Assembly: GCA_014905635.1 (NCBI GenBank)
Contig: JABVCE010000008.1
Span: forward strand, 1,302,001-1,366,000
Reading direction: 5' to 3'
Length of the DNA: 64,000 nucleotides
DNA from: Scenedesmus sp. PABB004
Lineage: Eukaryota
Below the pieces are notes generated by a model. That model made no database searches. It saw only the letters and a list, made by a program, of their open reading frames with translations, and was not told where the DNA came from. The position numbers and the translations under genes are program-made. Shown in pieces: positions 3,308-63,978 of this stretch (the first letter of the stretch is position 1; each line of letters begins with the position of its first letter).

Positions 3308-4547
3308 GAGCAGCAGGCGCCGCCGCCGCGCCTGCCGCCGGTCGCGCTCGTGCGGCTGCCGGGCAAGGTCAGCAGCATCGCGTGGAGCCCCGACATGGAG
3401 GGCGTCGTCAGCGTCGGCGACTACGACGGCACGCTCACGCAGGTGACCGCGGCGCGGCGCGGCGCGGCGGGGCGTTGCGCGGCGGGCGGGCGGCACTGCG
3501 GCGGCCCCGGCGGCGCAGCGGCCGGCGGGTCCGCGCAGGCGGCGGTGCGGGGCGCGCGCTCACGCGCCGCCGCGCGCGCCCCGGCCCCAGGTGCACGTCG
3601 CGTCGGGGCACTATCTCAGCGAGGTGGACGCGCACGGCGGGCGGCGCATCTGGTCGGTCTGCCACAGCCGCCTGCGCCCGCACCTCGCCGCGACCGCGAG
3701 CGACGACGCGACCGCGCGGCTGTGGGCGGGGCGCGGCTTCTCCGCGTCGGTCGCGACGCTCACGCTGCCGGGCGGCGCTGCCGTGTGCGGCGTCGACTTC
3801 AGCGCCGCCGACGCCAACCTGCTCGCGCTGGCTGGCGCCGACGGCCGCGCGTACGTGTTTGACCTGCGCCGCCTGTCTGAGCCGGTCGCGGCGCTGTCGG
3901 GCCACCGGCGCGCGGTGTCGTACGCCAAGTTTTTCGGCGCGGGGCACCTGCTGACGGCCAGCACCGACGGCACGCTCGCGCTGTGGGACCTCGGCGCCGC
4001 GCTCGGCGGCGGCGCGGCGAGCGGCCGCGCCACCAGCAGCAGCAGCAGCACCGGCCTGAGCTGCAGCGACGGCGCCGCGGCGGCGGCGACGGCGCAGCCG
4101 GCGCCGCCACGGCAGGCGCCGCCGCCGTGGGCGGGCGGCGCCGGGCCGGCGCCGCACGCGGCGGCGCAGCCCTGCAAGGTGTTCTCGGGGCACACCAACG
4201 AGAAGCACTTTGTGGGGCTCGCGGTGCAGCCGGCGGCGGGCCTGATGGCGGTCGGCAGCGAGGCGAGCGAGGTCGTCGCCTATCACACGAGCTGGAGCGA
4301 CCCGCTCGCGCGCTACGGCCGCTTTGGCGCCGCGCCGCAGCAGGCGGCGGCGGCCGTGCAGCAGCTCGCGGCGCCGGCCGTGGTGCCCTGGTCTGCGCAG
4401 CCGCAGCCGCAGTCGGTGTGCGCGGTGGCGTGGCAGCCGCCGGCGCCCGCCTGCGGCGCCGCGCCGGCTGCCTGCGGCGCGGCGGCGCTGCTCGCCGCCG
4501 CCACGACCGCGGGGGAGTGCCGGCTGCTGGCGCTGGTGGAGCCGTGA
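2352..4547 (+). CDS. COP1/SPA-type WD40 protein, RUP (repressor of UV-B photomorphogenesis)-like
   Basis: Exons ~2352-2369, 2594-3442, 3591-4547. Motifs DMVTGLEFSADGQLLATAGV, VGDYDG, HGGRRIWSV, SGHRRAVSYAKF, TASTDGTLALWD and SGHTNEKHFVGLAV match the COP1-family WD40 domain. No RING, coiled-coil or kinase domain is seen, which fits RUP. Confidence 0.85.
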
Positions 4548-5121
4548 GGCGCGTGGAGCGGCGAAGCGTGTGAGAGCGGCGCTGCGGGCACCCGCAGCGG
4601 GAGAGAGCGAGAGCGAGTGTTGATTTGCGCCGCCGCCGATGTGTGTCTGCGCGCGCGGTCGCTGCAGCTGCTGGGCACTGCCCCTGGCCTGATACATTCC
4701 TTGTGTATGGGGAGCCAACCTCTTGGTCGGCGCGTCCCGGCGCGTGTTGGTGGCTTCCTTGGTCTCTGGGCTTTCGGACAGTCGCGCGCGCGCCCCCGCG
4801 CACCACCAGCCGCCGCGGGCCGCGCCTGTTGACTGTGCCGCGCTGGCGCCGCGACGGTCGCCCTTCCCCTCTCTTGTCTAGGCGTTGCCGCCTTCGTGTG
4901 TGACAAGCAAGCCATCCCTTGCTAAGAGCTTGCAGGGCGCGGCGCGTTGCCGCGCGGCTGCAGGCCGCTCGGGGCCGGACGTGCGCGTTGTCGTGGTGTT
5001 GAGTGGTCATCTCTGGTCGCAGTGCAACCAATCGAGCGCTCCCCCGGACCCGGCTGGCCACGGCAGCCCGTCCGCCCACGCCGCGCGCCCGTGTGCGGTG
5101 CGCAGCTATCAGCCCAGTGAA

Positions 5122-5272
5122 GCGCGGCTGCCGCGCGGGCGGCGCCGAGCGCGCGTGCCTGCCCGGCGGCAGCATCCTCGCGCTGCCGGCGCTCGCGGCG
5201 GCGCGGCAGCGCGTGGCTCAGGCGGGCGCGGCGCGCACGGCGGCGGGCGGCGGCGACGCGGGCGGTTGGTGA
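5122..5272 (+). pseudogene. Duplicated 3' fragment of the ZGRF1-like gene
   Basis: Encodes RGCRAGGAERACLPGGSILALP..GDAGGW*, matching the C-terminus at 9979-10129 (-), with no upstream exons. Confidence 0.8.
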
Positions 5273-5636
5273 GGAGCGCATGCGCTGCGCGCAGCGTGTG
5301 TGTAATGACGCGACGGCGGCTGGTCGGCAGTGCGTGCGCCCTACTCCCCCGCTCCCCCGCTCTCTCTCCCGTTGGCCCAGGCGTGATCGCTGCCGGTTTC
5401 CTTGTTGTCTCTTTCATTGTGTGTGTTGTGTTGTTTTGTGTTTTGTGTTTGGCGTGTCATTTTTCGCCCCCGGGCGGAAAATAAATCTGGTGCCAGGCGT
5501 GGTTTGCCTATTTTCGCGCGGTGTTCCAGTGGGCGAAAATCTGCGATCGGGCGTTTGTCGTTTGAGCCACGCTGTATATGTTCAATGTGCACTCGCTCCG
5601 AGCCACGATGGTCATGACAGCCCGCTCCTGCGGGAT

Positions 5637-5709
5637 GGCTTGATAGCTCAGCTGGGAGAGCGTTAGACTGAAGATCTACAGGTCCCCAGTTCGATCCTGG
5701 GTCAGGCCA
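5637..5709 (+). tRNA. tRNA-Phe (GAA)
   Basis: 73-nt cloverleaf: acceptor GGCTTGA/TCAGGCC, D arm GCTC/GAGC, anticodon loop CTGAAGA, T arm CCCAG-TTCGATC-CTGGG. A TTTT Pol III terminator follows at ~5715. Confidence 0.97.
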
Positions 5710-6051
5710 ACCGTTTTGGGGTTTTACTTCGTCGTCTGGGCCTCTTCCCGACCCCGCCGCACTCCCCGCGCGAGCAGCCGCCCTGGGGCCCGCCGGGGCT
5801 CTCCGAGGCCGCCCGCGCAACCACCGAGGCCCGGGCCGCGCCGCCGGTCGCTCGCGCGCCCGCGGCCGCCGGCGGGCTCGCAGCGCCCCGGGGCCCCTCT
5901 CACCGCCCGCGTCACACGCGCGGCCTGGCAACCGCGCGGCGGCCGCAGTGCCGCCCGCCCGCCCCGCCCGGCCCCGCCCCGCCCTGCCGCCCGCTGCGCT
6001 GCCCGCCCGCTCCCCCCAGCTGCCCCGCCCGACCCGCGCTGCTGCATGCGC

Positions 6052-6234
6052 TCAGCGCCGTCTGCTGGCCTGCCTGGCTGCCTCGGCCGCCTGCTTCTCC
6101 ATCTCGGTGAAAAACTCCTGCGCACGCGCGCGGGCGGGCGGGCGGCTGCGTGGGCGGCGGCCCGGCCGCCCACGCCGCGCGCGCGGCTCGCGGCTGCGTG
6201 CCGCCGTCCGCCCACCTGGAAGCGCAGCCCCGTG
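6052..6234 (-). pseudogene. Duplicated 3' fragment of TIM9 (end of exon 3, last intron, last exon)
   Basis: TGLRFQ | EFFTEMEKQAAEAARQASRRR*, identical to the TIM9 C-terminus, but lacking both CX3C motifs. Confidence 0.8.
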
Positions 6235-6342
6235 AGGGCAGACACACGCGTAAGCCATCGCGGAAGTCGAGACATCCAGCGCGGCGCGCACCCACCAGCG
6301 CATGCGCGTGCGCTGCCGACGCCTCTGCTGCTGGACACCGCG

Positions 6343-8145
6343 TCAACTGCCCTCGCCGCCGCCGCCCGCCTCCGCCGCGCTGCCAGCGGCGCAGCAGGCC
6401 TCCAGCCCCGCCAGCAGCTCGGCCGCGTCGAGGCGGCGCCCGATGAGCACCAGGCGCGTGAGCCGCCCGCGCTCGCCGGGCCCGAGGCGGCGCTCCAGCG
6501 CCGCCCACGGCGCGCCGGGCGCGACGTCGTACAGGTCGCACACCGCCTGGAACATGTGCGCGGCGTCGCTGCCCGCCACGTGCAGCACGCCCTTCATGCG
6601 CAGCAACTCCGGCCGCGCCGCGCCGCCGCCGCCCGCGGCGGCATCGGCCGCGCCAGTAGTGGCGTGCTCCTGACGCGCCGGCTGCTGGAGCGCCGGCTCC
6701 CATATCAGCGCCTCGACCCAGGCCCGGAAGCGCTCCAGGCTGAGCGGCCGCGCAGTGCGCAGCGAGACGGTGCGCACGGTGCCGTCGTGCGCCGCGCAGG
6801 GCTGGCCCGCGCCGTGGGCGTGCGCGGGGTCGCTGCAGCCGGGCGCGCCGCAGCCCGCGCCGGCGCCCGCCCCAGCCGCGCCCGACAGCGGCGCCGCCGC
6901 CGCCTCGACCTCGCCCAGCCACTGCAGCGGGCGCTGCAGCGCCGCCAGGCCGTCCGCCGCGCTGCTGCCTGGCTGCTGCGGCGCGAGCTGCTCCGCCAGG
7001 CGCAGGCGGTACGCGCCGCGGTTGAGCAGGCGGCCGAGGTCGACGACGCTGTGCGTCGTGCGCAGGATCGTGGCGGCAGCATTGATGCACCGCAGCTGCG
7101 CCTCCACCGCCGCCAGCGCGTCCGGCGTGAGCAGGTCGACCTGGCGGCCGGCGGGGCGGGGCGGGGCGGCGCGGCGGGGCGGGGCGCCGTGAGGCGCACC
7201 GCCAGCGCGGGGCCCGGCGCCGACCCCGCGCTCCCGCAGGCGCCGCACCTTGTTCAGCAGTATCACGTCCGCCAGCGCCACCTGCAGCTGCGCCTCATTC
7301 GCGGCGCCGCCGGGGCGCGCCTCGGCGAGCTGGCGCGGCAGCTGGCGCCCGTCCACGACCGCGACCACGCCGTCCAGCGCCACCGCCGCCTCGAGCTCCT
7401 CGTCGGTCCACAGCTCCGCCATGATGGGCCCAGGGTGCGCCAGGCCTGCGCCCAGCGGCGCGGCGAGCTCGGCGGCGGCGCGTGCGCGCGTGCGCGGTGC
7501 CCGGGTCGGCGCGGGCCCGCCAGCCGGCACCGCCGCCGGCACCGCCGCCGCACACCCGTGGTCTCCACCAGCACGTGGTCGAACTTCCCGGCGTGGCCCG
7601 ACCCCTCCGCCATGAGCGCCTCCAGCGCCTGCACAAACTCGGCCTTGACGCTGCAGCAGAGGCAGCCGTTGGCGAGCTCCACCCACTGCGGCACCTCGGC
7701 GCGCCCGCCCCCCTCGTCCTGCACAAACGCGCTCTCCAGCCCCGGCTCGCCGCCGTACTCGTTGAGAATGACGGCGATGCGGTGGCCGTGCGCCGCGGTC
7801 AGGATGTGCCGCACCAGCGTCGTCTGCCGCAGCGGCGCGCAAGGGGGTGCGCGAGCGGACGTGTGGGCTCCGCTGCCGCCGCCGCCGCCGCCGCTCCGCG
7901 CCGCACGCCGCGCGCCGCACCGCACCTTGCCGGCGCCGAGGTAGCCCGTGATCAGCGTAACGGGCACGGGGGCCTGCGGCGGCGGCGGCGGGGCCGGCGC
8001 GCGCCCGGCTGCGGCGGCGGGGCCGGCTGTGAGCGGCGCCGAGCCGTGGGCCAGCGGATGCGCCAGGCCATCGGGCGCACGCACCGGGCACCTCCAGGTC
8101 CAGCGCCACCGCCAGCGGCAGCTCCTCGTCGTCGCTGGCCTCCAT
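6343..8145 (-). CDS. ZNG1: COG0523/CobW-family G3E GTPase zinc metallochaperone, ZNG1/CBWD-like (multi-exon)
   Basis: [15 protein letters not shown] (Walker A), [18 protein letters not shown] (CxCC), [20 protein letters not shown] and a CobW_C domain with [20 protein letters not shown]. The acidic N-terminal DEELPLAV motif is typical of eukaryotic ZNG1. Confidence 0.9.
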
Positions 8146-8490
8146 CGCAGCCGGCCGCGCAGCGGCGCCCAGCCGCTGCTCGCGGGCGCACGCGCTCTGG
8201 CGCGGTTCGGCGCTGCGCAGTGCGCCTTGATGGAGAGGGACGCAGGATATGCGAGATAGAGGGACTGAATGGCGCAGGAGTGGCCCCGCTGGGCAAGCGC
8301 GGCGCGCGCTGAATCGCCGCCGCTGCGACGCCGCGCCGTGCGCCGCCCGCAGCCCCTCGCGCCGCAGACGGCAGGCCAGTCCTCACACGCAGCTCACGCG
8401 ACCTGCCTCGCCCAGGGCAGACCCCAGCCGCGCCGCGACCGTCGGCCCCGGAGCGCGCCCGCCGGGCGAGCCCGCACCCCGCCCGCCAGG

Positions 8491-9199
8491 ATGAATTTCC
8501 CGGTCGAGGCGATGGCGGACCTGCCCGATGAGCACAAGGCGTCCTTCCTGGCGCAGCTGGAGCACATGCAAGTCCGCGACAGGTGCGCGGCGGCGCCGCG
8601 CTCGCCAGCAGCAGCAGCTGCAGCCGCCGGGCGCGCCGCCCGCGGCGCCAGCCAGGCTGGGCTGGCGGCAGAGCCTGGCGTGGCTGCGCCGGCCGTCTCC
8701 GCACGGTGCAACGGCGTCAGCGGCGCGGCGCGCCGGCATCGCGCCCCGACCGCCGCGGTGCCGCGCCGCCGTGCCTCGGTCGGCGCAGCCTGCGGCTGTA
8801 CAACGCGCTCGTGGAGCGTTGCTTCAAGGACTGCGTGGCCGACTTCCGCAGCAAGAACCTGGCCAAGGACGAGGAGAAGGTGGGGCGGCCGCCCTGGCGC
8901 GCGCGCAGCCGCTCCCTGCCAGCGGCGCGTGCTGACCGCTGCTGCTGCCGCCGCCGCCCGTGTGCTGCGCAGTGCGTCCAGAAGTGCTGTGAGAAGTTCA
9001 TGAACGTCTCTGCGCGCACGGGGCTGCGCTTCCAGGTGGGCGGACGGCGGCACGCAGCCGCGAGCCGCGCACGCGGCGTGGGCGGCCGGGCCGCCGCCCA
9101 CGCAGCCGCCCGCCCGCCCGCGCGCGTGCGCAGGAGTTTTTCACCGAGATGGAGAAGCAGGCGGCCGAGGCAGCCAGGCAGGCCAGCAGACGGCGCTGA
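8491..9199 (+). CDS. TIM9: Mitochondrial intermembrane-space small Tim chaperone Tim9
   Basis: Exons ~8491-8582, 8789-8879, 8973-9035, 9134-9199 give MQVRDSLRLYNALVERCFKDC..KCVQKCCEKF..GLRFQE, with twin CX3C motifs. Confidence 0.93.
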
Positions 9200-10129
9200 G
9201 CGCATGCAGCAGCGCGGGTCGGGCGGGGCAGCTGGGGGAGCGGGCGGGCAGCGCAGCGGGCGGCAGGGCGGGGCGGGGCCGGGCGGGGCGGGCGGGCGGC
9301 ACTGCGGCCGCCGCGCGGTTGCCAGGCCGCGCGTGTGACGCGGGCGGTGAGAGGGGCCCCGGGGCGCTGCGAGCCCGCCGGCGGCCGCGGGCGCGCGAGC
9401 GACCGGCGGCGCGGCCCGGGCCTCGGTGGTTGCGCGGGCGGCCTCGGAGAGCCCCGGCGGGCCCCAGGGCGGCTGCTCGCGCGGGGAGTGCGGCGGGGTC
9501 GGGAAGAGGCCCAGACGACGAAGTAAAACCCCAAAACGGTTGGCCTGACCCAGGATCGAACTGGGGACCTGTAGATCTTCAGTCTAACGCTCTCCCAGCT
9601 GAGCTATCAAGCCATCCCGCAGGAGCGGGCTGTCATGACCATCGTGGCTCGGAGCGAGTGCACATTGAACATATACAGCGTGGCTCAAACGACAAACGCC
9701 CGATCGCAGATTTTCGCCCACTGGAACACCGCGCGAAAATAGGCAAACCACGCCTGGCACCAGATTTATTTTCCGCCCGGGGGGCGAAAAATGACACGCC
9801 AAACACAAAACACAAAACAACACAACACACACAATGAAAGAGACAACAAGGAAACCGGCAGCGATCACGCCTGGGCCAACGGGAGAGAAAGCGGGGGAGC
9901 GGGGGAGTAGGGCGCACGCACTGCCGACCAGCCGCCGTCGCGTCATTACACACACGCTGCGCGCAGCGCATGCGCTCCTCACCGACCGCCCGCGTCGCCG
10001 CCGCCCGCCGCCGTGCGCGCCGCGCCCGCTTGAGCCACGCGCTGCCGCGCCGCCGCGAGCGCCGGCAGCGCGAGGATGCTGCCGCCGGGCAGGCACGCGC
10101 GCTCGGCGCCGCCCGCGCGGCAGCCGCGC
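9017..10129. repeat. Inverted repeat, right arm (the copy contiguous with intact TIM9 and ZGRF1)
   Basis: Reverse complement of 5122-6234. Confidence 0.95.
9541..9613 (-). tRNA. tRNA-Phe (GAA), second identical copy
   Basis: Exact reverse complement of 5637-5709. Confidence 0.97.
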
Positions 10130-13100
10130 ACGAGGTCGCGCAGCAGCGGGCTGGGCGCCTGGCTCAGCACGTCCGCGGCGCCGAGCACGACAAGGTGGCG
10201 GCGCGCGCGCGTGAGCGCGACGTTGAGCCGCGCGCTGTCCGAGGCAAACTCGCTGCGCGGGTTGGTGGTGGTCGTGGCCAGCAGGATCGCCTCCTTCTCG
10301 GCGCCCTGCGCAGCACGGGGTGCGTGTGGGGGGGGGGGTGACCGGCGGGGGCGCAGCTGGCCTGGACTGGTCTAGCCCGACCCCGTCGCGCTGCGCGGCA
10401 GGGCTCGGGGGGCCAGCGCTGCTGGCCGCCGGCCGCGGAGGCGGGCGGTGCGCGCGCCTGGAACGAGTCGACCGTGGCGACCTGCACGTCCGCAGCGCCG
10501 GGGCAGGCGGAGCCTGCCGGGCCGGTGCCGCCGGGCGGCGCGGCGCAGCGCAGGGGGCAGGGCGAGGTCGGGCGGTCAGGCGGCAGCCGAGGGCCCGGCG
10601 GCGCGCTGGCGCGGGGCGCAGCGGCGCGCCGCGCCGTCTCACCCGCTGCTGCCAGCATCTGGCTGATGAGCGCCGCCTGGCCCCGGAAGAAGCAGATCAC
10701 GCCCAGCTGGTGCGGCGCGAGCGCCGGCCGCTCGTCGTCGCCCGCGTCGCTGTCGCTGGCCTGGCTGTCGCGCGCCGGCGCCTGCGCCGGCGCCGGCGCC
10801 GTACGCGCGGCCAGCAGCGCCGCGACGAGCTGCACCACGAGCTGCGCCTCGGCGCGGTTGACGCTGCTGCGGCCGCCGCCCGCCGCAAACTCCGCCCGCC
10901 CGCCCGCGACGTCGCAGAGTACGAGCGGCGGCAGCCCCGGCAGCAGCGGGCCGCGCTGCGCGGCCGTCACGCCGTCCACGAGCAGGCCGTTGTAGCAGTG
11001 TCGGTTGCTCAGCGCCGAGAGCGCGGGGTGGCACCTGCGCGGCGGCGGCGGGGTGCACCAGGCGCGCGTCGGCGGCACCGCACGCGCGCCAGCGGCCGCG
11101 CTGCAGCACCACCGCGGCCAGCGCGCTGACCTGTACTGGTGCGTGAGGAGGTGCTCGCGGTGCCCCAGGTGGCACAGCCGCACGAAGAGCGGCCGCAGCA
11201 GGCCGTACACCACGCCGCCGCCGCCGCCGCGCTGCTGCGGCGTGTGCTCCGGCCCCGGCGTCACGCCGGTGGGGCTGGTCAGCACCGGTGGCAGCTGGCA
11301 CGGGTCGCCCGCGGCGATGAGGAAGCTAGCGGCGGCGGGCGCGGGCGCGGCGGTCGGCGCGGGGCGCGCGGCGCGCAGCGACGGGGCGGAGGAGGCAGGG
11401 CGGCGAGGGGGGCCCGCGCCGCCTCGGCGCCCCCAAACAGAAAATAAGCCCACCTGGGCTTGGCGCGCAGCAGCGCCACAAGGCTGGTCGGCTCGGTCAT
11501 CTGGCTGCTCTCGTCGAGCAGCACCACGTCAAAGGCCTGCCCCTCCAGCGTGGCCTGCAGCGCCGAGCAGCACGTCACGCCCACGACCGCCGCCGTGGAG
11601 AGGCGGCGGCGGCGCTGCCGCTCCGCGCCGGCCTGCAGGTGCGCGATCTCAGACCTGCGGCGGCGGTCGCGGCCTCGGCGTCGAGCCGCGCGCGGCCTGG
11701 GCGGGGTGCCGGCGCCCGCTCCCGACCCCCCCCCCCCCGGCCGCCGCTCCCCCGGCCTCACCTGATCATCTCGGCCTCGCCGCCGGCCGCGTTGCCGAGC
11801 ATGGCCTGGAGCTGACTGACAGCGTCGCGCGAGTCCTCGGCGCTGTGCAGCGAGTGGCCGAGCAGGCGGCGCGCGATGCGCGGCAGCGAGCCCACGCGCA
11901 GCATGTCGGTGAAGCCCGAGTCGAGCAGCGCCAGCAGCACGCGGTCGACCGCGACGTTGGTGTGCGCCGCGACGAGCAACCGCACGCCGCGCGCCGCGCC
12001 GGGCAGGCCCGCCGGGCGGCGCGCGCGCCCCGGCGGCGGCGCCGCGCCGGGCGGCGGCGGCGCCTGCGCGGCGGCGGCGCGCGCGCGGGGCGGAGGGGTC
12101 GAGACGCGAACCGAGCAGCAGGGCAGGGCGGCGGCGCCGCGCACGGGCCGGGAGGACCGGCGCCGCACCTCGTCCAGGCCGGTTAGCAGGTGGATCAGCG
12201 CGACCAGCAGGCTGGACTTGCCGCTGCCAAAGGGCCCGTGGATCAGGCAGACCGGCGGCACGGTCGGCGAGGCGGCGCCGCCCGCCGGCGCCGCCGCAGC
12301 GGGCGCGCCGCCCGCGGCCGGCGCGCCGCGCAGGCCCGCCGCCGCCGGCTTGCGCGCGCCGCCCGCCTGCTGCGTGCGCGACTCCAGCAGAGGCAGCCAG
12401 GCAGCCACGTGCGCGGCGACGCGCGCCTGTGCGGCGTTCAGGCCGAACCGCGCGCACACCTGCCCCAGCAGCGCCTGCGCCTGCAGCGCCACCGCGGCCG
12501 GCCCGTCGTTCGCGGCCGGCCCGTCGTTCGCGGCCGCCGGCGGCTGCCCGCGCCGCGCCGCCGCCGGTCCAGGCGGGGCAGCGGCAGCGGGCGCGTGCCC
12601 GTCCGATTCCCAGCCGTCCTCGTTGTCCGAGGCTGCCGCCGGCGGGGCGGGGGCGGCGCCCGCCGCCGCGTCTGACGCCGCCTCGTCGCTGTCCTGGCTG
12701 TCGAGCCGGGCGCGCTTGGCGGCCGGGCGCGCCTGGCGGTGCCTGCAGGCGGCGCCGTCCTCAGAGGAGTCACTGTTAGGCTCGCCCCCGCCGCCGTCCT
12801 GCGCGGCGACGTCCGCGCCGCCGCTCGCGCTCCCGTCCTCGCTCTCACTGCTGGGGCTCAGGCTGCCGTCAGCGGCGGCGCCGAGCTGCTGGCCGCCAGC
12901 TGGCGTCCGGCACGCCTGCTGCTGCTGCTCGCCGGCCGGCGCTGCGCGCCCAGCTGCCGCCGCCGCCGGCGGCGCCGTGGCGGCGGCCGCCTCTGCTGGC
13001 GCGGCCTCTGGCGCGGCCGGCGCCGCCTCTGGCGCGGCCGCGGCCGACGGGTGCGCCGCGGCGTGCGGCTGCGGCTGGGTGAGGCTCGGCAGCAGCGACC

Positions 13101-15953
13101 AGCCTGCCAGGTCCGCGGCCTCGATGAACGCAGCGACCTGGACCTCCGTGGCGACGTCCGGCGCCTGCAGCGCCGCGACCTCCTGGCTGCGCTGCCACGC
13201 GTGCCCCGGCGGCAGGCCCTCCTGGCCGCCCGGCAGCAGCTCCACCTCGAACTTGCCGTCGCGGTCGGGCGCGTGCCACACGCTCCTGCGCGCGGGCGGC
13301 GCAGCGGGCGCGCGTCGGCGGCGGCGGGCCCGCGCATGCGGCGGGCCAGCGCGCGACACGCACGGCCACGCCTAAACCGCACCGCGCCAGCACCGTCCAG
13401 GGCTGTGCGCGGCGGTCGCGCGGGCCGTCGCCGGCCGTGCCGCGGCCCCCCAGCGTCGCGTCGCTGCCCAGGATCCACAGGTCGTGCTTCCTGCGAGCGC
13501 GCGAGCACACATGTGAGCGCGTGGGCGGCCGGACGGGCGGGCGGGAGGCAGCCGCGGCGCCGAGCGGCCTGGACGACGGCCGTGCCGCCGAGCGCGCCCG
13601 GCTCGGGCTCCGCCCCCCGCGCGTCCGCACCGGAACTTGCGCCGGTCGAGCTTCCCCGCCGCCGGTATGGTCAGGTACATGCTGGCGGCCTTGCGCTCGC
13701 CGCCGCCGCCGCCGCCGGCGTCGCCGTCGCCGTCGTCGTCGTCCCCGCCGGCGCGGCCGCGCTTGCCGCCGCCCTTGGCCCTGCCAAACGCGCGGCCCGC
13801 GCTGCCAGAGCGCGGCTGCCACACGGTCAGGCTGCAGCTGGGGTGGAAGTGCAGCCCGGCGCGGCCGCACGCCGCCGCGAGCGAGGCCGCGCCGCCCGGC
13901 CGGCCACCGCCCGCGGCGGCGCCGCGGGCCGCCGGCTGCTGCTGCGGCCTGCCGGCCTGCGGCCCGCCCTGCGCGGCCGCCTGCTGCGCCTGCTGCGCCT
14001 GCGCCGCCACGAGGCCGTGAAACGTCCGCGCCGTCTCGCCGACCTTGAGGTTCACCTCCTCCACCAGCGCCGCCAGCAGCGCCGCCCTCCACGCGGCCGC
14101 GTTGCCGGGCGCGGTGGGCACCGCGGCGCGGCGCACAGGCGGCGGCGCGCCCGGGGGCGGGAACGCGTAGCCCGGCGCCGGCGCTGCCCCGAGCGGGCCA
14201 GGGGCGCCCGTGCCGCCGCCAGCGAGGCGCGGCGCAGCGAAGCCGCCGAGCGCGTGCTTGCCGCCACCGAGCGCCGCCGGCGCGCCGGGCCCGCGCAGCT
14301 CGCCGTTGCGCGGCAGCGGCTGCAGCGGCTGCCGCCACTGCACAGCGCTGACGCCTCCCGCCAGCGGCGCCTGCCACTTGTGCCGCGCAGCAGGCGCACC
14401 GCTGGGCGGCCCGCTACCGGCGGCCTGCGGCTGCTGCTGCGGCGGCGGCTGCGGCCGCGACCGCGGCTGCGGCTGCGCTCCGCTGCAGGCCTGCCGTTCG
14501 CTGGGCAGCGCCTGGCTCTGGTGCAAGCTGATCATTGTGCTCTTGCTGCTGGACCGCCCCCCGTGCTGCTGCTCCTGCTCCCGCTGCTCCTGCTGCTGCT
14601 CCTGCTGCTTCGGCTGCTGCCGCCAAGTGATGTGCTGCTGGGGCCGCTCCTGCTCCTCCCCGGCCACTGGCTGCTGCTGCCAGCGCTGCCACCCGAGCTG
14701 CGGCGGCGCGCCAGGCGGCCCCTGCGCGTCGGCGCCGGCGCGTGAGTTTGCTTGCGCCGCCGCGCGGGGCGCGTGCGGAGCACGCCGGGCGCCGGCCGTG
14801 CGGAGCACCCGGCCCACCTCATGATGCGCGCCCTCGCGCGGCTGCACCCGCCCCTGCCAGCTGCTGACGCTGCAGCTGCGGCCGGCGTCGGCCCTGGCGG
14901 TGATGCTGTCCAGCAATGCCAGGATGGTCATGTCTGTGGCGGCGGTGCAGGGGCGGAGGGTGGTCGGCCGGCGCGGGGGCGCGCGCATCTCAGCTGCAAC
15001 GCACGCCCTCCTGCTGGGGCGGCGCGAACACGCAACGACCGCCGCGGCGTCGCCGGCGCGCACCCGAGTTGCATGCGGCGCCGCCGCCGGCCGGCGCGGC
15101 CGGGCGCGCCGCCTCGCATGGCGCCGCCTGCTCGCCCCACGGCTCCCCGCCCGGCTGCGCCTGCTCGGCCCACGGCGCCGGCGGCGGCTGCTGCGGCAGC
15201 TGCGCGGGCGGCGCCAGCTGCGGCGGCGGCTGCCAGGGCTTGCGCTGCGGCGCCGGCTCGGGCGCGGCGGCCTGCGGCCTGGCGGCGGTCGCGCTGCGCC
15301 GGCGCACCACGCGCGGCACCACCGGCGCCGGCCGGTCCGGCTGCTGCTGCAGTCGCACGGCCAGCGCGGCAGCGCCGGCGACGGCGCCCGGCCACGCGCC
15401 CGCCAGCCCGCCGGCGCCAGGCTGCTGCTGCTGCTGCTGCTGGTGCTGGTTCTGCGGCGGCGGCGCGCCGTAGCCGCTGCCGCGCCCACCCGGCAGCTCG
15501 CTCGGGTGGCACGCACAGTCCCCCTGCACAACGAATCCCTCAAACCTGCGCGGCGCGGGCGAGCGCGTGGGCGCGGGACGGCGCGCGTGCGCGCCGCGGA
15601 TCGCGGCCCCCCGCGCTCACTCCCGGAGGTCCTCCGCCGTCGCCGGGTCGGCGCCGCGCGGCAGCCGCGCGGCGGCGAGCTCGCGGCCCTCCTGCGCCCG
15701 CAGCGGCGGCCGCAAGGGTGGGCCGCGGCGCGCGCGGTGCCAACCGCACGCGCAGCCGGCCGGCGGCGCGGGGCAGCGCTCGGCGGCGGCGCGCCTCGTC
15801 CAGCAGCAGCGCCGCGCCGCCGGCCGTCACGAGGACGAAGCCGTCGGTCCAGGACTTCTGCTTCTTGGTGAGCTGCTTGGTGTAGAGCACCCGCGCCGCC
15901 GCGGCGGCGGCGGCGGGCGCGGCGCGCTGCTGCTGCTGGCGCGGCGCCGCCAT
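9979..15953 (-). CDS. ZGRF1: ZGRF1-like protein: N-terminal DUF2439 plus C-terminal Upf1/DNA2-NAM7-like SF1 helicase (multi-exon)
   Basis: N-terminal RVLYTKQLTKKQKSWTDGF is the DUF2439 signature. Helicase motifs: IHGPFGSGKS, AAHTNVAVD, LDESSQ, AGDPCQLPP, QYR|CHP, VATVDSFQ|GAEKE, RRLNVALTRARR. A TGTAA lies on the minus strand at ~9945-9949. Confidence 0.88.
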
Positions 15954-16057
15954 CACGCGCCGCGGGCGCGGGCGCGGCTCGCTCCGCGTGTGGTTGTGCC
16001 CGCGGGCCGGAAGCGGGCTGACCCGCAGGCGCGCGCCCCGCGCAGAATCTGAACGGC

Positions 16058-16207
16058 GCCCCGACAGACGTGACGTAACGCTAGGCGGTGGGACTCGAGG
16101 CGAGGTGCTGCCTAGCGGGGCGCACGAGGATCGAACCGTACTTACCGCCGTCTATGGCGCACGTCTCTCGCACCCCTTGCTGGGCCGCCTGGCGTTATTG
16201 TCGGGGC
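16058..16207 (+). other. Intergenic long imperfect hairpin (candidate structured RNA or MITE remnant)
   Basis: 16058-16067 pairs with 16198-16207 (10 bp) and 16076-16089 pairs with 16184-16197 (14 bp). The non-Watson-Crick pairs are G-U on the + strand, and further inner pairing is present. Confidence 0.5.
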
Positions 16208-16750
16208 CGCGGCCGCTCGGCGGCCCGGCCAAAGATTGCCGCACACGCGATGCGGTGGCGACAGAGTCTCAACAGAGTTCAGGCGCACGCGGCGGTGGGC
16301 CGGCTGTGCCAGCCAGCCACGCCGCCGACGTGCGGGGCGCGCGCCAGCGGGTCAGCCCGCATGGCGACGCCCGTGTCGTGTGGTGTATTTTGTGTAGGGG
16401 GGGGGGGGCTCATCTAGAGAGAGAAGGCAAGCGCGATCCTTCTGGCGGGCGGCGCACGCCGCGCCTCGTGCTCCGCAAAGAGCAGGCAAACCGACGCGCG
16501 CACGCCGCCGCGGCGCGCTCGGCGCGCGGGCGACGGAGAGAGAGGGCAGCGCTCCCACGCCCCCAACCCCACACAGTCCCACACACCGGGGCCCAGAGAG
16601 AGTGCAAGCTGCGACAGCAGCGCCGCGGCTGCGGCACAGGGCGCGCAGCGGCCAACTCGTCGCCCGCCGCCGCATCAACACGGGGGGATCAGCTAGGTCT
16701 TGGCGCGCGCGCGCGCAAGCACAATACACAAACGCGGGGGGCGCTCGCGC

Positions 16751-19730
16751 TCAGGGCTTGAGCACGGTGTTGGCCGTCTGCAGGTCGAGCGCGCTCTGGA
16801 AGCTGCTCTGGATGGCGTTGCCGCTGACCCAGGCCTTGCCGTTGGGCTTGAGCGCCTCGAACGAGGCCTGCTGCGCCGCGACCTCCTGGCCGAGCGCGGC
16901 GTTGGGCGCCGCGGCGGCGGCGTTCATGGCGGCGAGGTTGTTGAGCGTCGCGTTGGTGTTGGCCACCGCAAAGCCGCGCGCGCTGATGAGCTCCTTGGCC
17001 ATGGGCTGGCTGGGCGTGTACGCGCCGAGCGCAAAGATGAGCGCCGACACGCAGCCCGCGGCGATGAGCGTGAAGATCCAGCCTGCAGGGGGGGGGGGGG
17101 GCGCGGAGAGGGGGCAGGACAGGAGGGAGGAGGTCAGGGGGGAGGGGCGCGGTCGGTCGCGGCGCGCGGATGGGACGTGCGCGCGCGCTCGCGCGGGCGC
17201 GCAGGCGCGCGCGCGCAGGCGGCGGCGGCGCACCGAGGAGCATCTTGCCGTACAGCGCCCAGTTGAGCGCCTTCCAGCGGCCCTCGGCGATGCCGCCGCC
17301 CGCGGTCGCGCCGGTGATGGTGTGCGTGGTCGAGAGCGGCAGGCCGAGCGCGGAGCCGACGCTGATGACAAACGCGGTCGAGGTCTCCATGCAGAAGCCG
17401 CGGCTGGGCGTGATGTGCGCGCACTTGACGCCGAGCACGCGCATGATGTTGTAGCCTGGCCGCGGGCGGGGCGCGGCGGCAGGGCGGTGAGCGGCAGGGC
17501 GGGGCGGCGCTCACGCGCCCTCGCGCGGGCGCGCGCGCGGCGCGCGCGGGCCGAGGGCGGGCGGGCGGGCGGGCGGGGCGGCCGCGGGCGGCGGCGCTCA
17601 CCGTAGGTCGCGAGGCCGATGACGATGCCGGCGCCGCCGAGCGCGAGCACCCAGAGGTACACGTCCGAGTTGGAGCCGGGGACCTGGAGGTTGTTGTACA
17701 CGTACAGCGCGGCGCAGAAGGAGCCGATCGCGTTGGCGACGTCGTTGGCGCCGTGCGCAAAGCTCATCGCGCAGGCAGAGATGACCTGCGCGGCGGTGTG
17801 CGGCGAGCGGCGCGCGTGAGCGGGGGCCAGCAGGCGCAGAGGCGCCGGGCGCGGGCGCGCGCGGCGGCGCAGGGCGCGGGGCGGCGCGCGGGGTGGCGGC
17901 GCGCGCGGCGGGCTGGGCAGCGCCGGCGCGCACCTGGAGGATCTTGAAGACCTGCTCGGTGCGGGGGTCAAACTTCTCGGCCGACTCGTGCATGGCCATG
18001 ATGTGCTCGTCGTTCTTGACGTCGGCGTGGATGTCGTGCGTCACGCCCGAGAGCGCCGCGTTGCGCGCGCGCTTGAACATCGCGCCGATGCTCCTGTCCG
18101 CGGCGTCGACGTGCGTGGGCTTGAGCTTGTCCGCGACCGCGCGCTGGAAGGCGTCCTCCTCGACAAACACCGACTGCGCGCCGTCCTCGCCCTTGCCGGT
18201 CGCCGCCTCGACCGCGTTGGCGGCGCGCTCGTCGTAGCGCTTGAGGCTGCGGCGAATGAGCGGGATGATGACCGCGCAGCCCACGACCGTCGCGCCGCCC
18301 GCGGCCGCGGCCGACAGCCACGCGGCCTTGGTGGGCGAGATGGTGACGATCGACTTGACGCCCTTGGTGAGGATGAAGAAGAGGTTGATGAAGAAGGTCA
18401 GCAGGATGAGCACCGGCAGCACCCACACCGCGACCTTGGTGCTGTTGGCGCGGCGCAGCACAAAGGTGCGGACGACGAGGAAGAGGACGAGCGTGATGAG
18501 CGCCGCGAGCAGCGGCGAGAGGAACCAGGAGATGATGACCGGCACGATGCCGCCGACGTAGGGAAAGTCGGCCTGTGCCGCGCGGGCGCGGCGGGGCGCG
18601 CGCGGCAGGGAGGGAGGCGGCGCGGGGCGGGGCGCAGCGCGCTCAGTGCGTCGGCGCGACGGCTCGGCGGTGCGGCGCGCGGGCGGCGCGCGCGCGCCCG
18701 GCCCGCTGCACGGCGCTGCGCGGCGCGGACGCGGGCGCGCACCTTGGGCTCGTACCACACCACCGCGCCGCCGCCGCCAAAGACGAGGGCAAAGCCGATG
18801 ATGCCGCCGATGATGGCGTGCGTGGTCGAGACGGGGAGCTCCAGGTAGGTCGCAAAGAGGATCCACATCATCGCCCCCGTCTCGGCGGTGAGCATGCCAA
18901 ACATAAAGAGCTGGGGCGTCGCCGCAAAGGTCTGCGCAGCGCGGGCGCGCGCGTGGGGCGTGGGCGCGCGGGCGCGGCGCGGGCGCGGCGCGGGCGCGGC
19001 GCGGGCGCGGCGCGGGCGCGGCGCGGGCGCGTGGGGAGCGGGCTCGCGCAGCGCGCGCGGCGGCGCACCGAGGTCTTGGCGATGCCGCCGGCGATGGTCT
19101 TGGTGACCTGGCCGCCGAGGAGCATGGCGCCGAGGAACTCAAAGATCGCGGCGATGACGCACGCGGACCACATGCTCAGCGTCTTGGACCCCACGCTCGT
19201 GCCAAACGCGTTGGCCACGTCGTTGGCTGCGGCGGCGGCGGCGGCGGTGCGGGCAGGGGCATGAGCGCGCGGCGGCGGCGGCGGGGCGGGCCGCCGGCGC
19301 GACGTCGGCGCGGCGCGGCGCCGCCCGGGTGCGTGTGCGGTCGCCGCTGCGGCGGCTGGCTGCGCGGCGCACCGCCAATGCCGTAGGCGTCCATGAACGC
19401 CACGATGCCGTGGACCACGATCATCCATGTGTACTCCTGCGGTGAGGGCGGCGACCAGGCGGCGGGCGTGAGGTGAGGAGAGCTGGTGACGAGAGGCGCT
19501 AAGAGATGCTGGCCCTGAGCAGCATCTCAGGAGCGCGCGGGTCCCAGGCGGACGCGCCGCATGCGCGGGTGGCCTCGCTGATCGACCTCGAACGCCACGG
19601 CAGCGCGGTCGGCCCAGAACTCCACCGCAGGGCTAAGATTCTCCGCGTGGCAGCAGCATCGGCGGCCACCGCTCGCCCTGCGCGCTCGCCGCCTGGCGCC
19701 CGGTGCGCCGCCGCTCACCGGCCACGCCAT
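16751..19730 (-). CDS. PHO4/PiT-family (PTB-type) Na+/phosphate symporter (multi-exon)
   Basis: First coding exon MAWP (19719-19730) joins [30 protein letters not shown]. Also [12 protein letters not shown], a second repeat [14 protein letters not shown], and [17 protein letters not shown]. Confidence 0.93.
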
Positions 19731-20670
19731 GGCGCTCGGCTTCTCAGGGCGGGCGGGGAGGGGTTGGGGTGCGCGGGCTGCGGCGCTGGCGGCGGGGTGC
19801 TGCCGGTGCCGAGGGAGCGAGGGGGAGGGCGCGTGGCGGGTGGCGGGGTGGGGGCGGAGTAGTACGACCGCGCGAGCGCGAGGCCTTGGGCCAGGCGGCG
19901 GCGCCTGCGGCGAGCGCCGCCTCGAGAGTATATGCTGTCAAGTCGATGTTGTGACAGCCGCCGCAAAAATCAGCTGCAGGGCTGCAGCGCGCCCTCCGCA
20001 CGCCAGGCACGCGCTGCACACCCCGCGCGGCAATGCACCGATGCACCGGCGGTGGCGCGACCGGGCGTCGCGACGGGGGCGTCGCCGGCGCCCGGCGGCG
20101 CCCACCGCCTGCGGGCGCGGGCGCGAGCCTGGCCGCCTGACCGGCGATGGGCGCGAACGCCTGCCGCCGCCGCCGCACTGCCGGCGGGCGCGGGCTGGCA
20201 GGCCGCGTCGCAGGTGCGCCAGGCGACTCGCAGTCGACCGCCGGGCCGCGCCGCTGAACCCCCGGCCAATCGAGGCCGGGCCTGCGCCGCCGTGCCACTC
20301 GCGCGCGCCGCTGAACCCCCCGCCGTCACGCATCGCCCAGCTGCGGCTCGCGTGCGGTGCGCCACACACGCAGCTGTTGACCGGGCGGCGAGGCCCGCGC
20401 CCCCTGCCGCCGCGCGAGCTCAGCCAGCGCCGGCAGCGGGGCGGAGCAGCGGCGCCGGCGCAGGGCCGCTCGGCCTGGCCGCAAGGGCGCGCCAGCGGTA
20501 GCAGGCCGCGCTCGCGTGGGCGGCTGGGCGAACGTGCTGCGAGGCCGCCAGCTTCGGCTCGCGCCTCCTGCGGCGCCCGCGGCGGCCATGGCGGCCGAGC
20601 AGCAGCCGGCGGCGCCGCCGGAGAGCCCGGCCGGTGGCGGTGCTCGCTCCCAGCACGTCGCAGCCGCGCC
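19687..20670. repeat. Tandem duplication copy 1 (PTB exon 1 + bidirectional promoter + truncated BCD1 start)
   Basis: Near-identical to 20776-~21775 (offset 1089-1090). The 3' end degenerates after ~20628. Confidence 0.93.
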
Positions 20671-20775
20671 GCCGGCACCTCAACCCTGAACCCCCACATA
20701 AACCCTCGACCCGAGGCAGATTTCGCGGCAGCTCTGCATCGCCGGCCGGCGCCGCCCTAGGGGAGGCCTCCTGCG

Positions 20776-21775
20776 CGCCGCCTGGCGCCTGGTGCGCCGC
20801 CGCTCACCGGCCACGCCATGGCGCTCGGCTTCTCAGGGCGGGCGGGGAGGGGTTGGGGTGCGCGGGCTGCGGCGCTGGCGGCGGGGTGCTGCCGGTGCCG
20901 AGGGAGCGAGGGGGAGGGCGCGTGGCGGGTGGCGGGGTGGGGGTGGAGTAGTACGACCGCGCGAGCGCGAGGCCTTGGGCCAGGCGGCGGCGCCTGCGGC
21001 GAGCGCCGCCTCGAGAGTATATGCTGTCAAGTCGATGTTGTGACAGCCGCCGCAAAAATCAGCTGCAGGGCTGCAGCGCGCCCTCCGCACGCCAGGCACG
21101 CGCTGCACACCCCGCGCGGCAATGCACCGATGCACCGGCGGTGGCGCGACCGGGCGTCGCGACGGGGGCGTCGCCGGCGCCCGGCGGCGCCCACCGCCTG
21201 CGGGCGCGGGCGCGAGCCTGGCCGCCTGACCGGCGATGGGCGCGAACGCCTGCCGCCGCCGCCGCACTGCCGGCGGGCGCGGGCTGGCAGGCCGCGTCGC
21301 AGGTGCGCCAGGCGACTCGCAGTCGACCGCCGGGCCGCGCCGCTGAACCCCCGGCCAATCGAGGCCGGGCCTGCGCCGCCGTGCCACTCGCGCGCGCCGC
21401 TGAACCCCCCGCCGTCACGCATCGCCCAGCTGCGGCTCGCGTGCGGTGCGCCACACACGCAGCTGTTGACCGGGCGGCGAGGCCCGCGCCCCCCTGCCGC
21501 CGCGCGAGCTCAGCCAGCGCCGGCAGCGGGGCGGAGCAGCGGCGCCGGCGCAGGGCCGCTCGGCCTGGCCGCAAGGGCGCGCCAGCGGTAGCAGGCCGCG
21601 CTCGCGTGGGCGGCTGGGCGAACGTGCTGCGAGGCCGCCAGCTTCGGCTCGCGCCTCCTGCGGCGCCCGCGGCGGCCATGGCGGCCGAGCAGCAGCCGGC
21701 GGCGCCGCCGGAGAGCCCCGCCGCCGGGCCGGAAGGTGTGGCGGTGCTCGCGCGCCCAGCACGTATCAGCCGCGA
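20776..21775. repeat. Tandem duplication copy 2 (extra PTB exon 1 at 20808-20819, intact BCD1 start)
   Basis: Near-identical to 19687-20670, with about 2 substitutions and 1 homopolymer indel in the core. Confidence 0.93.
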
Positions 21776-31911: not shown

Positions 31912-34472
31912 GCGGCGGCGGCGGCGCGGAGCGCGGCGAGGGCGGCCGCGCGGCGGCGCGGCTCGCGGCGCCGTGCGCGGCGCGGCCGCGCGGCGACCTG
32001 TGGCTGGTGTCGGCGACCATGAGCGTGGTGGACGGCGACGTCCGGTGCGCGCGCGGCCGCCGGGGTGGGGACGCCAGGCGGGGCCGCGTCGGCGCGCGCC
32101 TGCGCGCACCCTCAAGCCACTCCCGCCGCCGGCGCCGCGCCCGCAGGTCGCCCGTGCTGCTTGCCGGCCTCGGCTGGGCGGGCGCGCTTCCCGGCGCCGT
32201 GCTCGGCGCGCAGCTCGCGGCGCTGGGCGACGCGCACCGGCGCGTGGAGGACGCGGCGCTGGCACGGACGCTCGCGCGCGTCGCGCCGACGCTCTACGGC
32301 GCCCTCGCCGCGCTGCCGGCGCAGGAGCTGGGCGCCGCCGCCGCGCTGCTCGAGCGTCGCGCCACAGTGTGGGTTGGCGACGGCTTTGTGCAGGCGGAGC
32401 GCGTTGCGTTCCGGGTGCGCGCGCCGGCAGCGCGCGCGCGCGAACGCGGCGCGGCAGCCGTAGCCGCCGCGCGGCGGCTCACGGGCGGGTGCGCCGCACG
32501 TGCGGGCGCGGCCGCAGGGCGCGATGGACCTCAGCCCCCACCTCTACGTCTTGCCGCTGGAGCTCAGCCCGTTTCGTGAGCTGCTCGCGGTGCTGGGCTG
32601 CACGCAGGCGTTCAGCGCCGCGCAGTACACCGCGCTGCTGCAGGTGCGGCGGGGCGCGACGCCGCGTCGCGCCGCTGCTCCGCCGCGCCCGTGCGGCGGC
32701 GCTCGCGAGCCCCTCGTGCCCCGCCCGTCCGCACGCCCCGCGCAGGACCTGAGCCGCGCCGCGGCCGGCAGCCCGCTGCCGGCGGCGCAGCTCGCGCAAG
32801 CGCTGGCTGTCGTGCAGGCCCTGGCTGACGTCGTGGGCGCCTCTGGCGGCGGCGCCACCGCGGGGCGCACGGCGCTCGCCGGGGGCCGCGGCGGCCGAGA
32901 GCCCGACGCGGCGCTCGTGCCGGACACGGGCGGCGTGCTGCGCCCCGTGGCTGAGCTCGTGTACGATGACGCGCCGTGGCTGGACTCGCCCACGGCAGGC
33001 GCGCCGCGCCGCGCGGCAGGCAGGCGGCCGTCGCCGCATGGCCGCCGCGGCGCGGCCGGCGCCGCGTGCTGCGCGCTCCCAACCCCCGCGTCCGCCGCCC
33101 CCAGGTCTGGACGCGCAGCTGCGCCTGGTGCACCCGCGCGTGTCGGCGCCGGTCGCCGAGGCGCTGGGCGTCGCGTCGCGACGGCGGCTCATGCTCGCTG
33201 CGTCTGCCGACTGCCTCGCGCTCGGCCTGGTCGGCGGCGCGGTGGAGGCGTTTGGGCAGAGCGAGGCGCTGACCACGCGCCTGCGGCACATCATCCAGGC
33301 GCGCAGCGCCCGGCGGGCGGCGGGCGGGCGGGTGCGCGCCGGCGGCGGTCGCAGCGCACTGACGGCTCGCCCCGCCCGCCCGGCGCTCGGCCGCGCCGCG
33401 GGCACGCGCAGGACTATCCCGAGGGGCCCGGCGTGCTGCTGGAGCTCCTCCAGAACGCGGACGACGCCGGCGCGTCGGCGGCGGCGTTCACGCTCGACCT
33501 GCGGCACCACGGCACGTCGTCCCTGCTCGGCCCGGGGCTCGCGGCCTGGCAGGGCCCCGCGCTGCTGGCCTGGAACGACGCAACCTTCTCGCCCGGCGAC
33601 CTCGCCGCCATCGCGCGCATCGGCCAGGACGGAAAGATGAGCCAGCCGGCCGCCATCGGTCGCTTCGGGTGCGCGCAGCACGCAGACGGGCACGGCGGCG
33701 GGGCGGGCGCCACGCGCCGCGCGCCACAGGGCTGAGCGCGCCCCGCGCCCCGCGCCCCGCGCCCTGTGCCCCGCCCGCGCCGCAGCGTGGGGTTCAACGC
33801 GGTGTACCACCTCACAGACCTGCCCAGCTTCGTCTCGGGCGAGCACCTGGTGCGGCGCGCGAGCGCGCGCGTGCGGACGGCGCGCCCCCGCACGCGCGAC
33901 GCTCGGCGCCGCGGCCGCCCCTGCCACCGCCGGACGCGCCGCCCGCCGCCGCCGCGGCCGTCTGTTGCGCGCCCCTCGCCGCACGCACCCTCGACGCGCA
34001 CGCCCCCGCGCCGCAGGTGCTGTTCGACCCGCACGCGCGCTACCTGCCCGGCGCGTCGCCCGCGCAGCCGGGCCTCCGCATCAGCCTCGCGCGCGGCGCA
34101 CTGCTGCAGCAGTTCCCCGACGCCTTCAGCCCTTACATGCTCCACGGCTGCACCATGGAGGTGCGACGCGCGCCGCGCGCGACGCGCACGCTCCGCGCGC
34201 GACGCGCACGCTCAGCGCGCAGCCTCGGCGGCGCCACGCCGGGCGGCGCCGCGCGACCCCCTGCCGCCCGCGGCCGCGGCCCGGCGCCGTCAGGGCTCGT
34301 ACCCGGGCACGCTCTTCCGCTTCCCGCTGCGCACGCCCGACGCGGCGGCGGCGAGCGAGATCAAGGGCGCGCCCACGGCCCCGGGCGAGGCGCTGTCGCT
34401 GCTCGCGTCGCTGGCGGGGCTGCTGCCCCAGGCGCTGCTCTTCCTCAAGGGCCTGCGCCGCGTGGAGGTCGC

Positions 34473-34541
<69 letters not shown>

Positions 34542-60436: not shown

Positions 60437-63978
<3,542 letters not shown>

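Follow-up and report, generated by a model that had tools for sequence, protein, structure and literature searches.

A 1.1-kb inverted repeat around a ZNG1-type gene and the 5' part of TIM9 in Scenedesmus sp. PABB004: probably a recent inverted segmental duplication

Is a pair of near-identical inverted repeats around two genes an invertible cassette, as an initial annotation of this locus proposed, or the trace of a duplication? The locus lies in a gap-free window (the whole 64-kb stretch of DNA that was analysed, no N, ~80% GC). Our analysis indicates that the structure is a duplication of an ordinary kind, probably a real and recent inverted segmental duplication that acts as a passive substrate for repeat-to-repeat recombination.

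A repeat search identifies three collinear inverted pieces (5460-6016/9234-9790, 5122-5481/9770-10129 and 6013-6245/9006-9238) of 98-99% identity, the only inverted pairs across the window at a minimum length of 90. No other long inverted repeat occurs in the window, so this one is not a chance match of GC-rich sequence. Gapped alignment merges the pieces into a single repeat (5122-6242 versus 10129-9009), in which 5122-6234 and 10129-9017 are reverse complements of 1,113 bp per arm, with 6235-9016 as the interior between them. The arms had been described as reverse complements with about six differences, and the count agrees: four substitutions (5221 G/A, 5267 T/C, 5362 C/T and 6180 C/T) and two one-base differences in the length of C runs (at 5467 and 6012), an arm-to-arm identity of 99.5%. 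Each of the four substitutions is a transition, the pattern that genuine mutation would give. The two homopolymer-length differences resemble errors of the consensus, and the assembly is thus not free of mistakes. Between the differences lie identical blocks of 99, 45, 94, 104, 544, 167 and 54 bp. Substitutions occur only in the outer 241 bp and the inner 55 bp of the arm, and the central 817 bp is free of them (max-gap P = 0.025 under uniform placement, post hoc and with four sites only).

The arms are bordered by unique sequence on both sides. The outer edge is sharp, between 5121 and 5122. The inner edge is marked by two further mismatches (6235 and 6237) and is fuzzy, with matches at 8 of 11 positions past 6234 and weak extra matches until 6245; the chance probability of such an edge match is ~0.01 before post hoc correction (hand calculation, per-base match rate of 0.34). 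No homology was found past either arm edge, the flanks aligning with scores of 36 and 45 where shuffled sequences reached up to 44 and 42.

Each arm contains a tRNA-Phe (GAA) gene, the 3' end of TIM9 and the terminal 49 codons of a gene for a ZGRF1-like SF1 helicase. The tRNA genes, located by ARAGORN (anticodon gaa) at 5636-5712 on the plus strand and at 9538-9614 on the minus strand, both score 61.4 bits against Rfam RF00005 (gathering score 29) and are identical, since none of the arm differences falls inside them. The gene lies no more than 4-5 bp from the exact centre of the copied segment. A T run (5715-5718) follows the left copy.

Going inwards, the right arm (9017-10129) passes into TIM9 exon 3, and going outwards into the helicase reading frame; it is continuous with the splicing pattern of TIM9 and with the helicase ORF. 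The left arm (5122-6234), an orphan copy with the body of neither gene, is placed in the intergenic region in which the 3' ends of a WD40-repeat gene and the ZNG1-type gene converge, with unique WD40 3' flank on one side (to 5121) and the ZNG1 3' UTR on the other (from 6243). Its helicase tail (5122-5272, plus strand) shows one synonymous and one R/W difference from the right-arm tail and has no helicase body upstream, and the left-arm ORF 5003-5269 matches no Pfam family. Its TIM9 3' end (6052-6234, minus strand) comprises the last 19 nt of exon 3, intron 3 with one base different, and exon 4 with the stop codon. The initial annotation had listed the tRNA, the ZGRF1 3' end and the ‘TIM9 3' exons’ as arm contents; the first two stand, whereas of the TIM9 exons only exon 4 is whole.

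The 2,782-bp interior holds the ZNG1-type gene and TIM9 exons 1-3 head to head on opposite strands, just as first described, with start codons 345 bp apart. The ZNG1-type gene (6343-8145, minus strand; start codon at 8145, stop codon 6343-6345) is entirely interior and has at least four introns (GT..AG). Its product has a P-loop (GYLGAGK) and a GCLCC (CxCC) motif, and matches Pfam cobW (PF02492, E = 6.1e-22) and CobW_C (PF07683, E = 3.9e-17); at the level of type, it is predicted to be a ZNG1/COG0523 CobW-type GTPase. TIM9 (8491-9199, plus strand) was modelled by hand with exons 8491-8582, 8789-8879, 8973-9035 and 9134-9199, the last inside the right arm. The model encodes 103 aa plus stop with all introns GT..AG, has the twin CX3C motifs (CFKDC, CVQKC) and matches zf-Tim10_DDP (PF02953, E = 1.8e-11). 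Compared with solved chains, exon 2 alone matches Tim9 at E = 3.6e-6 to 5.9e-4 and Tim10/Tim8 at 0.059-0.35.

Beyond the right arm lies the body of the helicase gene (10130-16151, minus strand), with AAA_11 (PF13086), AAA_12 (PF13087) and, at 15543-16151, ZGRF1-like_N (PF10382; 25.8 bits, cut-off 23). Its tail (9979-10129, minus strand; last 49 codons and stop) belongs to an ORF (9979-10371) that passes the arm edge at 10129 uninterrupted, and the AAA_12 match extends to just outside the arm. No zf-GRF match for a GRF-type zinc finger was found among the 36 minus-strand ORFs scanned in 12861-21414 or among the ORFs searched for the other domains, a search that a short exon could escape, and we therefore call the gene ‘ZGRF1-like’. 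On the other side, the 3' part of the WD40-repeat gene (3447-4547, plus strand; Pfam WD40, E = 2.2e-11; stop codon read) has a 3' flank (4548-5121) that abuts the left arm. The labels ZNG1, TIM9 and ZGRF1 are thus supported by Pfam domains and by the Tim9 structure matches.

On the reading as a recent inverted segmental duplication, the ancestral order would have been WD40 (+), ZNG1 (-), TIM9 (+), tRNA-Phe (-) and helicase (-). The segment copied in reverse would have been 1,113 bp long, starting 19 nt short of the 3' end of TIM9 exon 3 and reaching into the helicase gene as far as 49 codons ahead of its stop; it spans the convergent 3' ends of TIM9 and the helicase gene with the tRNA-Phe gene between them. 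The reverse copy would have been inserted 2.8 kb away, between the convergent 3' ends of WD40 and ZNG1, likely by a replication template switch or copy-and-paste break repair. Directly, this would have produced an additional intact tRNA-Phe gene along with orphan fragments of two gene tails. Both breakpoints lie inside coding exons of two genes, and therefore no functional unit is respected. The window contains another local duplication, a direct pair (19687-20668/20776-21774) that is ~99.5% identical, as well as an older direct pair of 87-93% identity; with local duplications of different ages in one window, local duplication is a continuing process here.

The sequence would allow the interior to flip. 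When 6235-9016 is replaced in silico by its reverse complement, the TIM9 coding sequence and protein are identical, and intron 3 remains GT..AG with one base different. As ZNG1 is all interior and the helicase body is outside the right arm, the proposal that a crossover leaves the genes intact is borne out. Homologous recombination needs uninterrupted identity of a few hundred bp, and the 544-bp block exceeds this. The arms are thus a predicted competent substrate for non-allelic homologous recombination (NAHR), by which ZNG1 and the 5' part of TIM9 would change orientation, with junctions and coding sequences unchanged. Such a flip appears possible and neutral, not a regulated switch. Of the ‘invertible cassette’, we therefore retain a gene arrangement that would survive a flip but not the idea of a device: the anatomy, with its arbitrary breakpoints, fits a passive by-product of duplication. 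No relatives at the DNA or protein level were found in the collections searched; when sequence words were sought in sequencing runs, only two metagenome runs matched (~6% of words).

How old the repeat is, and whether it is active, depends on how the differences between the arms are read. The clustering of the substitutions near the arm edges is better explained by ongoing gene conversion between the arms than by a repeat that is just young, and with such conversion the repeat would be older than the simple reading has it. Gene conversion together with recurrent NAHR inversion could then maintain both isomers in cells or populations. The perfect 544-bp block in a 1.1-kb arm, the restriction of substitutions to the arm ends, the sequence equivalence of the two isomers and the fuzzy inner edge, which could reflect erosion, all agree with this, and in human the FLNA-EMD inverted repeats recombine measurably, somatic cells included, according to one report (bioRxiv 10.1101/2020.04.20.051185). 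The clustering test is, however, post hoc and uses four sites, the figure of ~0.01 for the inner-edge match does not yet allow for its post hoc choice, and an old eroding repeat should leave a gradient of homology past the edges, where none was found; we regard an active flip-flop as unlikely. Very improbable is its extension, in which the tRNA-Phe gene, as a replication-fork barrier, made the duplication and keeps driving arm exchange, giving a nuclear flip-flop with converted arms and both orientations in the population. An inversion with staggered breaks (Ranz et al., 2007) could have left a similar anatomy: breaks flanking the 1.1-kb segment, together with a simple break where WD40 borders ZNG1, would duplicate the segment at both ends of the inversion, and NAHR would later have flipped the interior back to its present orientation. 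That study reports, at the breakpoints of 17 of 29 Drosophila inversions, inverted duplicates of unique genic sequence that are 46 bp to ~1.9 kb long and often stem from just one of the breakpoints (PMC1885836). The present repeat is likewise a 1.1-kb, one-sided duplication of ancestrally unique genic sequence, two gene ends and a tRNA with only two copies in the window. The direct product of staggered breaks, however, has an inverted interior and a TIM9 completed by the new arm, whereas gene continuity gives the present interior the orientation of an intact single-copy ancestor, the TIM9 5' part lying beside the helicase-adjoining arm. A re-inversion has to be added, two events instead of the one needed for direct inverted duplication, which makes this history improbable.

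We also give little credence to an assembly artefact, in which the left arm would be absent from the genome, its sequence stemming from a second haplotype joined in error or from read chimerism. Six differences are about what haplotypes would show, two of them are homopolymer lengths typical of consensus error, and the second ~1 kb near-identical duplication in the window could hint at an assembly-level cause. Against this, two precise false junctions between non-homologous sequences would be needed in a gap-free stretch; fold-back chimeras are spacer-less palindromes, unlike 1.1-kb arms with a 2.8-kb unique spacer; and the duplications of 87-93% identity in the window cannot be artefacts, so local duplication does take place in this DNA. 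In shape, with a cargo between inverted arms, the locus also recalls a composite transposon whose terminal inverted repeats would be 1.1 kb long, or a site-specific invertible segment with its recombinase. Such elements are contradicted by the locus and have a negligible probability: the arms are host gene ends, the right arm being continuous with the helicase ORF and with TIM9 splicing, no target-site duplication is seen (flanks ...AGTGAA and ACGAGG...), and no recombinase or transposase was found by Pfam among the 58 ORFs (≥60 aa) overlapping 4548-10129, four of which have matches (cobW/CobW_C, cobW, Tim10 and AAA_12).

If the inverted segmental duplication is real, the locus shows neatly and on a small scale how inverted copying at short range sets up a neutral, junction-silent substrate for inversion and, incidentally, doubles a tRNA gene. 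It does not open up any long-standing question. Inverted pairs of 1.1 kb and 99.5% identity are error-prone spots for assembly and annotation: orphan pieces of TIM9 and of the helicase may appear in the output of gene callers, and a hidden inversion here would escape short reads.

Several known systems resemble the locus in part. The inversion of FLNA-EMD at human Xq28 is roughly ten times larger than this locus. There, near-identical inverted repeats surround two intact genes, and exchange between the arms reportedly flips them without loss of function (bioRxiv 10.1101/2020.04.20.051185; 10.1101/2021.12.20.472354), as is predicted for our locus. Here, in contrast, arms of 1.1 kb surround 2.8 kb and cut two genes, TIM9 always being completed by the adjoining arm, and a single orientation is known, from one assembly. 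Like the duplications of Ranz et al., the repeat consists of ancestrally unique genic sequence from one breakpoint region and falls within their size range, but the continuity of the genes implies that its interior has the orientation it had before the duplication, and its arms are 99.5% identical against a Drosophila mean of ~88% in that study (PMC1885836). Near-identical inverted arms with a unique spacer are also described for sex-chromosome palindromes (PMC8327919). The placement of our substitutions towards the arm ends would be compatible with gene conversion as in those palindromes; their arms, however, exceed the present ones in length by a factor of tens to hundreds and contain entire gene families.

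The plastid large inverted repeat and the yeast 2-micron plasmid have isomers of identical gene content that are interconverted by inverted-repeat exchange. The present locus is instead chromosomal and of nuclear type, with spliceosomal introns; no dedicated recombinase was found among its 58 ORFs, its arms are far shorter and one isomer is known. FoSTeS and MMBIR are replication template-switch models for inverted duplications, and forks stall at tRNA genes. No microhomology was found at the outer junction, and the inner junction may have an imperfect one (GCAGA..AC). The local inverted copy a few kb away, its sharp junctions, any such inner microhomology and the tRNA gene at the centre of the segment are features shared with template-switch duplications, and this shape suggests that the present repeat may have arisen by such a mechanism.

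The inverted repeat pair is confirmed. A repeat search of the window (minimum length 90) returned three collinear inverted pieces of 98-99% identity and no other inverted pair in the 64 kb, and gapped alignment merges the three, so that 5122-6242 pairs with 10129-9009 as a single repeat. Homology stops abruptly on the outer side (5121|5122); the inner boundary, at 6234, is followed by 11 positions, 8 of which match. The whole window is ~80% G+C, so that short GC-rich matches are common, but this repeat is far beyond such matches. Alignment scores past both arm edges are not above those of shuffled sequences. Within the left arm (5122-6234; right arm, 9017-10129) there are four substitutions, all transitions (5221 G/A, 5267 T/C, 5362 C/T and 6180 C/T), and at two places, 5467 and 6012, the length of a C-run differs by one base between arms. 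The gapped alignment therefore bears out the count of about six differences in the initial annotation.

Each arm carries a tRNA-Phe(GAA) gene (ARAGORN; Rfam, 61.4 bits), at 5636-5712 on the plus strand in the left arm and at 9538-9614 on the minus strand in the right. A hand-built model of TIM9, a small-Tim gene on the plus strand, has four exons (8491-8582, 8789-8879, 8973-9035 and 9134-9199) separated by GT..AG introns and encodes 103 aa. Pfam identifies a zf-Tim10_DDP domain in it, and exon 2 matches solved Tim9 chains (E = 3.6e-6) much more strongly than it matches Tim10 or Tim8, for which E is 0.059 or worse. Divergent from TIM9, with 345 bp between the start codons, is the gene of a CobW/ZNG1-type GTPase (minus strand, start 8145, stop 6343-6345) with cobW and CobW_C domains. 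The repeat is flanked on the left by a WD40 gene (plus strand, WD40 domain) that ends at 4547, and on the right by an SF1 helicase gene (minus strand; AAA_11, AAA_12) whose ZGRF1-like N-terminal domain is encoded at 15543-16151. The helicase is called ZGRF1-like because no GRF zinc finger is seen in it. Searching its C-terminus against longer proteins gave five matches (42-52% identity, 40-63% query coverage, roughly as much as the conserved core part takes up). These matches reveal no conservation of the 49-codon tail, and the protein of the organism itself is not among them.

One boundary of the repeat falls in TIM9 exon 3, of which the repeat takes in the last 19 nt; the other falls in the helicase gene, of which it takes in the last 49 codons and the stop. 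Both genes run continuously into the right arm; the left arm has neither gene body and is an orphan copy of the two tails. Gene labels and layout had been assigned correctly from the outset, except that each arm had been credited with the TIM9 3' exons, where it actually holds one whole TIM9 exon and 19 nt of another.

From the helicase stop to the tRNA gene (5272-5635; mirror 9615-9978) the G+C content is markedly lower, with G/T-rich runs, and a TATA-like 'TATATG' is located ~50 nt upstream of the tRNA. No Rfam family matches this stretch or its mirror, which probably comprises the 3' UTR of the helicase gene and the sequence upstream of the tRNA gene. The motif TGTAA, considered as a poly(A) signal, occurs ~30 nt past the helicase stop in both arms; it carries no weight in this role, as the window total is only 4, a number reached in 23 of 100 shuffles. 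At the inner end of the left arm, only 100 bp (6243-6342) separate the arm from the ZNG1 stop codon. ZNG1 transcripts probably extend into the orphan TIM9 3' fragment, which has the same sense as ZNG1, and may end at signals supplied by this fragment.

The pair is most likely a passive inverted segmental duplication and does not have the anatomy of a device: two coding exons are severed at arbitrary points, the left copy lies in intergenic DNA between the facing 3' ends of the WD40 gene and ZNG1, no target-site duplication was found at the repeat, and Pfam shows no recombinase or transposase among the 58 ORFs of 60 aa or more in 4548-10129. Only four of these ORFs have Pfam matches, all to genes named here (ZNG1, TIM9 and the helicase). 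The readings as a composite transposon, for which neither a target-site duplication nor a transposase was found, and as a site-specific invertase system, for which no recombinase was found among these ORFs, were rejected. A single inverted copy-and-insert event would account for the whole structure. Since an intact single-copy ancestor needed the TIM9 5' part beside the helicase-adjoining arm, the present interior orientation (6235-9016) is the ancestral one.

That the repeat pair was instead created during assembly is quite unlikely on internal grounds. Both differences in homopolymer length do resemble consensus noise, but an artefact would require two exact false joins between non-homologous sequences within a stretch that has no gaps; chimeras of the fold-back type yield palindromes without a spacer, and the substitutions separating the arms are exclusively transitions. 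The sequencing runs listed as sharing words with the window are two freshwater-metagenome runs of one study, with some 6% of the sampled words each, a share too small to count as evidence; none of the runs listed is RNA. An exact scan of metagenome contigs with a 24-mer taken beside the junction, in the unique left flank, gave no match, and neither did exact scans of prokaryote genome contigs and of viral contigs with a 29-mer of arm sequence. For the last ZNG1 exon there are 280 pattern matches in metagenome contigs, none of which tblastn confirmed as a relative, and a protein search with the ORF that spans the novel outer left junction found no match among 8,000 scored candidates.

An inversion was modelled by putting the reverse complement of 6235-9016 in place of the interior. 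After this in-silico flip the TIM9 coding sequence and protein are identical, intron 3, now supplied by the other arm, still has GT..AG ends and a single changed base, ZNG1 remains wholly interior and the helicase is still joined to the right arm. The proposal that a flip breaks no gene is thus structurally sound, and the segment is plausibly invertible as far as its sequence indicates. Because the same arm sequence abuts both interior ends, inversion alters no junction and would be detectable only through long-range linkage.

None of the four substitutions falls in the central 817 bp of the arm; they are confined to its outer 241 bp and inner 55 bp (P = 0.025 for such a gap under uniform placement, calculated post hoc from only four sites). 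Clustering at the edges, together with the fuzzy inner edge, would fit gene conversion from arm to arm, again on four sites and post hoc. The tRNA-Phe gene is centred to within 4-5 bp in the copied segment, with flanks of 514 and 522 bp (chance ~0.01-0.02, post hoc). Genes for tRNAs are known fork barriers; a tRNA-centred origin of the duplication is conceivable but unsupported.

Local duplication has evidently occurred repeatedly in this genome, given two direct pairs in the window. One, of ~1 kb and ~99.5% identity (19687-20668 and 20776-21774, period 1089 bp), sits immediately upstream of the minus-strand gene for a PHO4-family phosphate transporter and is similar in size and identity to the inverted pair; its copies differ by two C/T transitions and, close to the 3' edge, by indels and mismatches. 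The other (27461-28895 and 33721-35372) is older and dispersed, in several pieces of 87-93% identity, 6.2-6.5 kb apart. A supposed telomere-like 8-bp repeat near 62.5 kb is actually an (AC)81 microsatellite (62496-62657); the stretch that contains it has a strongly negative GC skew and a positive AT skew.

In the staggered-break model of inversion (Ranz et al. 2007; PMC1885836), unique genic sequence is left as an inverted duplicate at the breakpoints, often from only one of them and 46 bp to 1.9 kb in size. The repeat described here has this shape; however, the direct product of staggered breaks would be the flipped isomer, unlike the present interior orientation, so a second event would be required. 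By their orientation, their identity and the length over which they match perfectly, the arms are inverted low-copy repeats, and the pair is a further case of this already known kind. Its closest counterparts are inverted low-copy repeat pairs that permit inversion by non-allelic homologous recombination, here known from one sequenced orientation; between the inverted repeats around human FLNA-EMD, exchange occurs at a measurable frequency (bioRxiv 10.1101/2020.04.20.051185).
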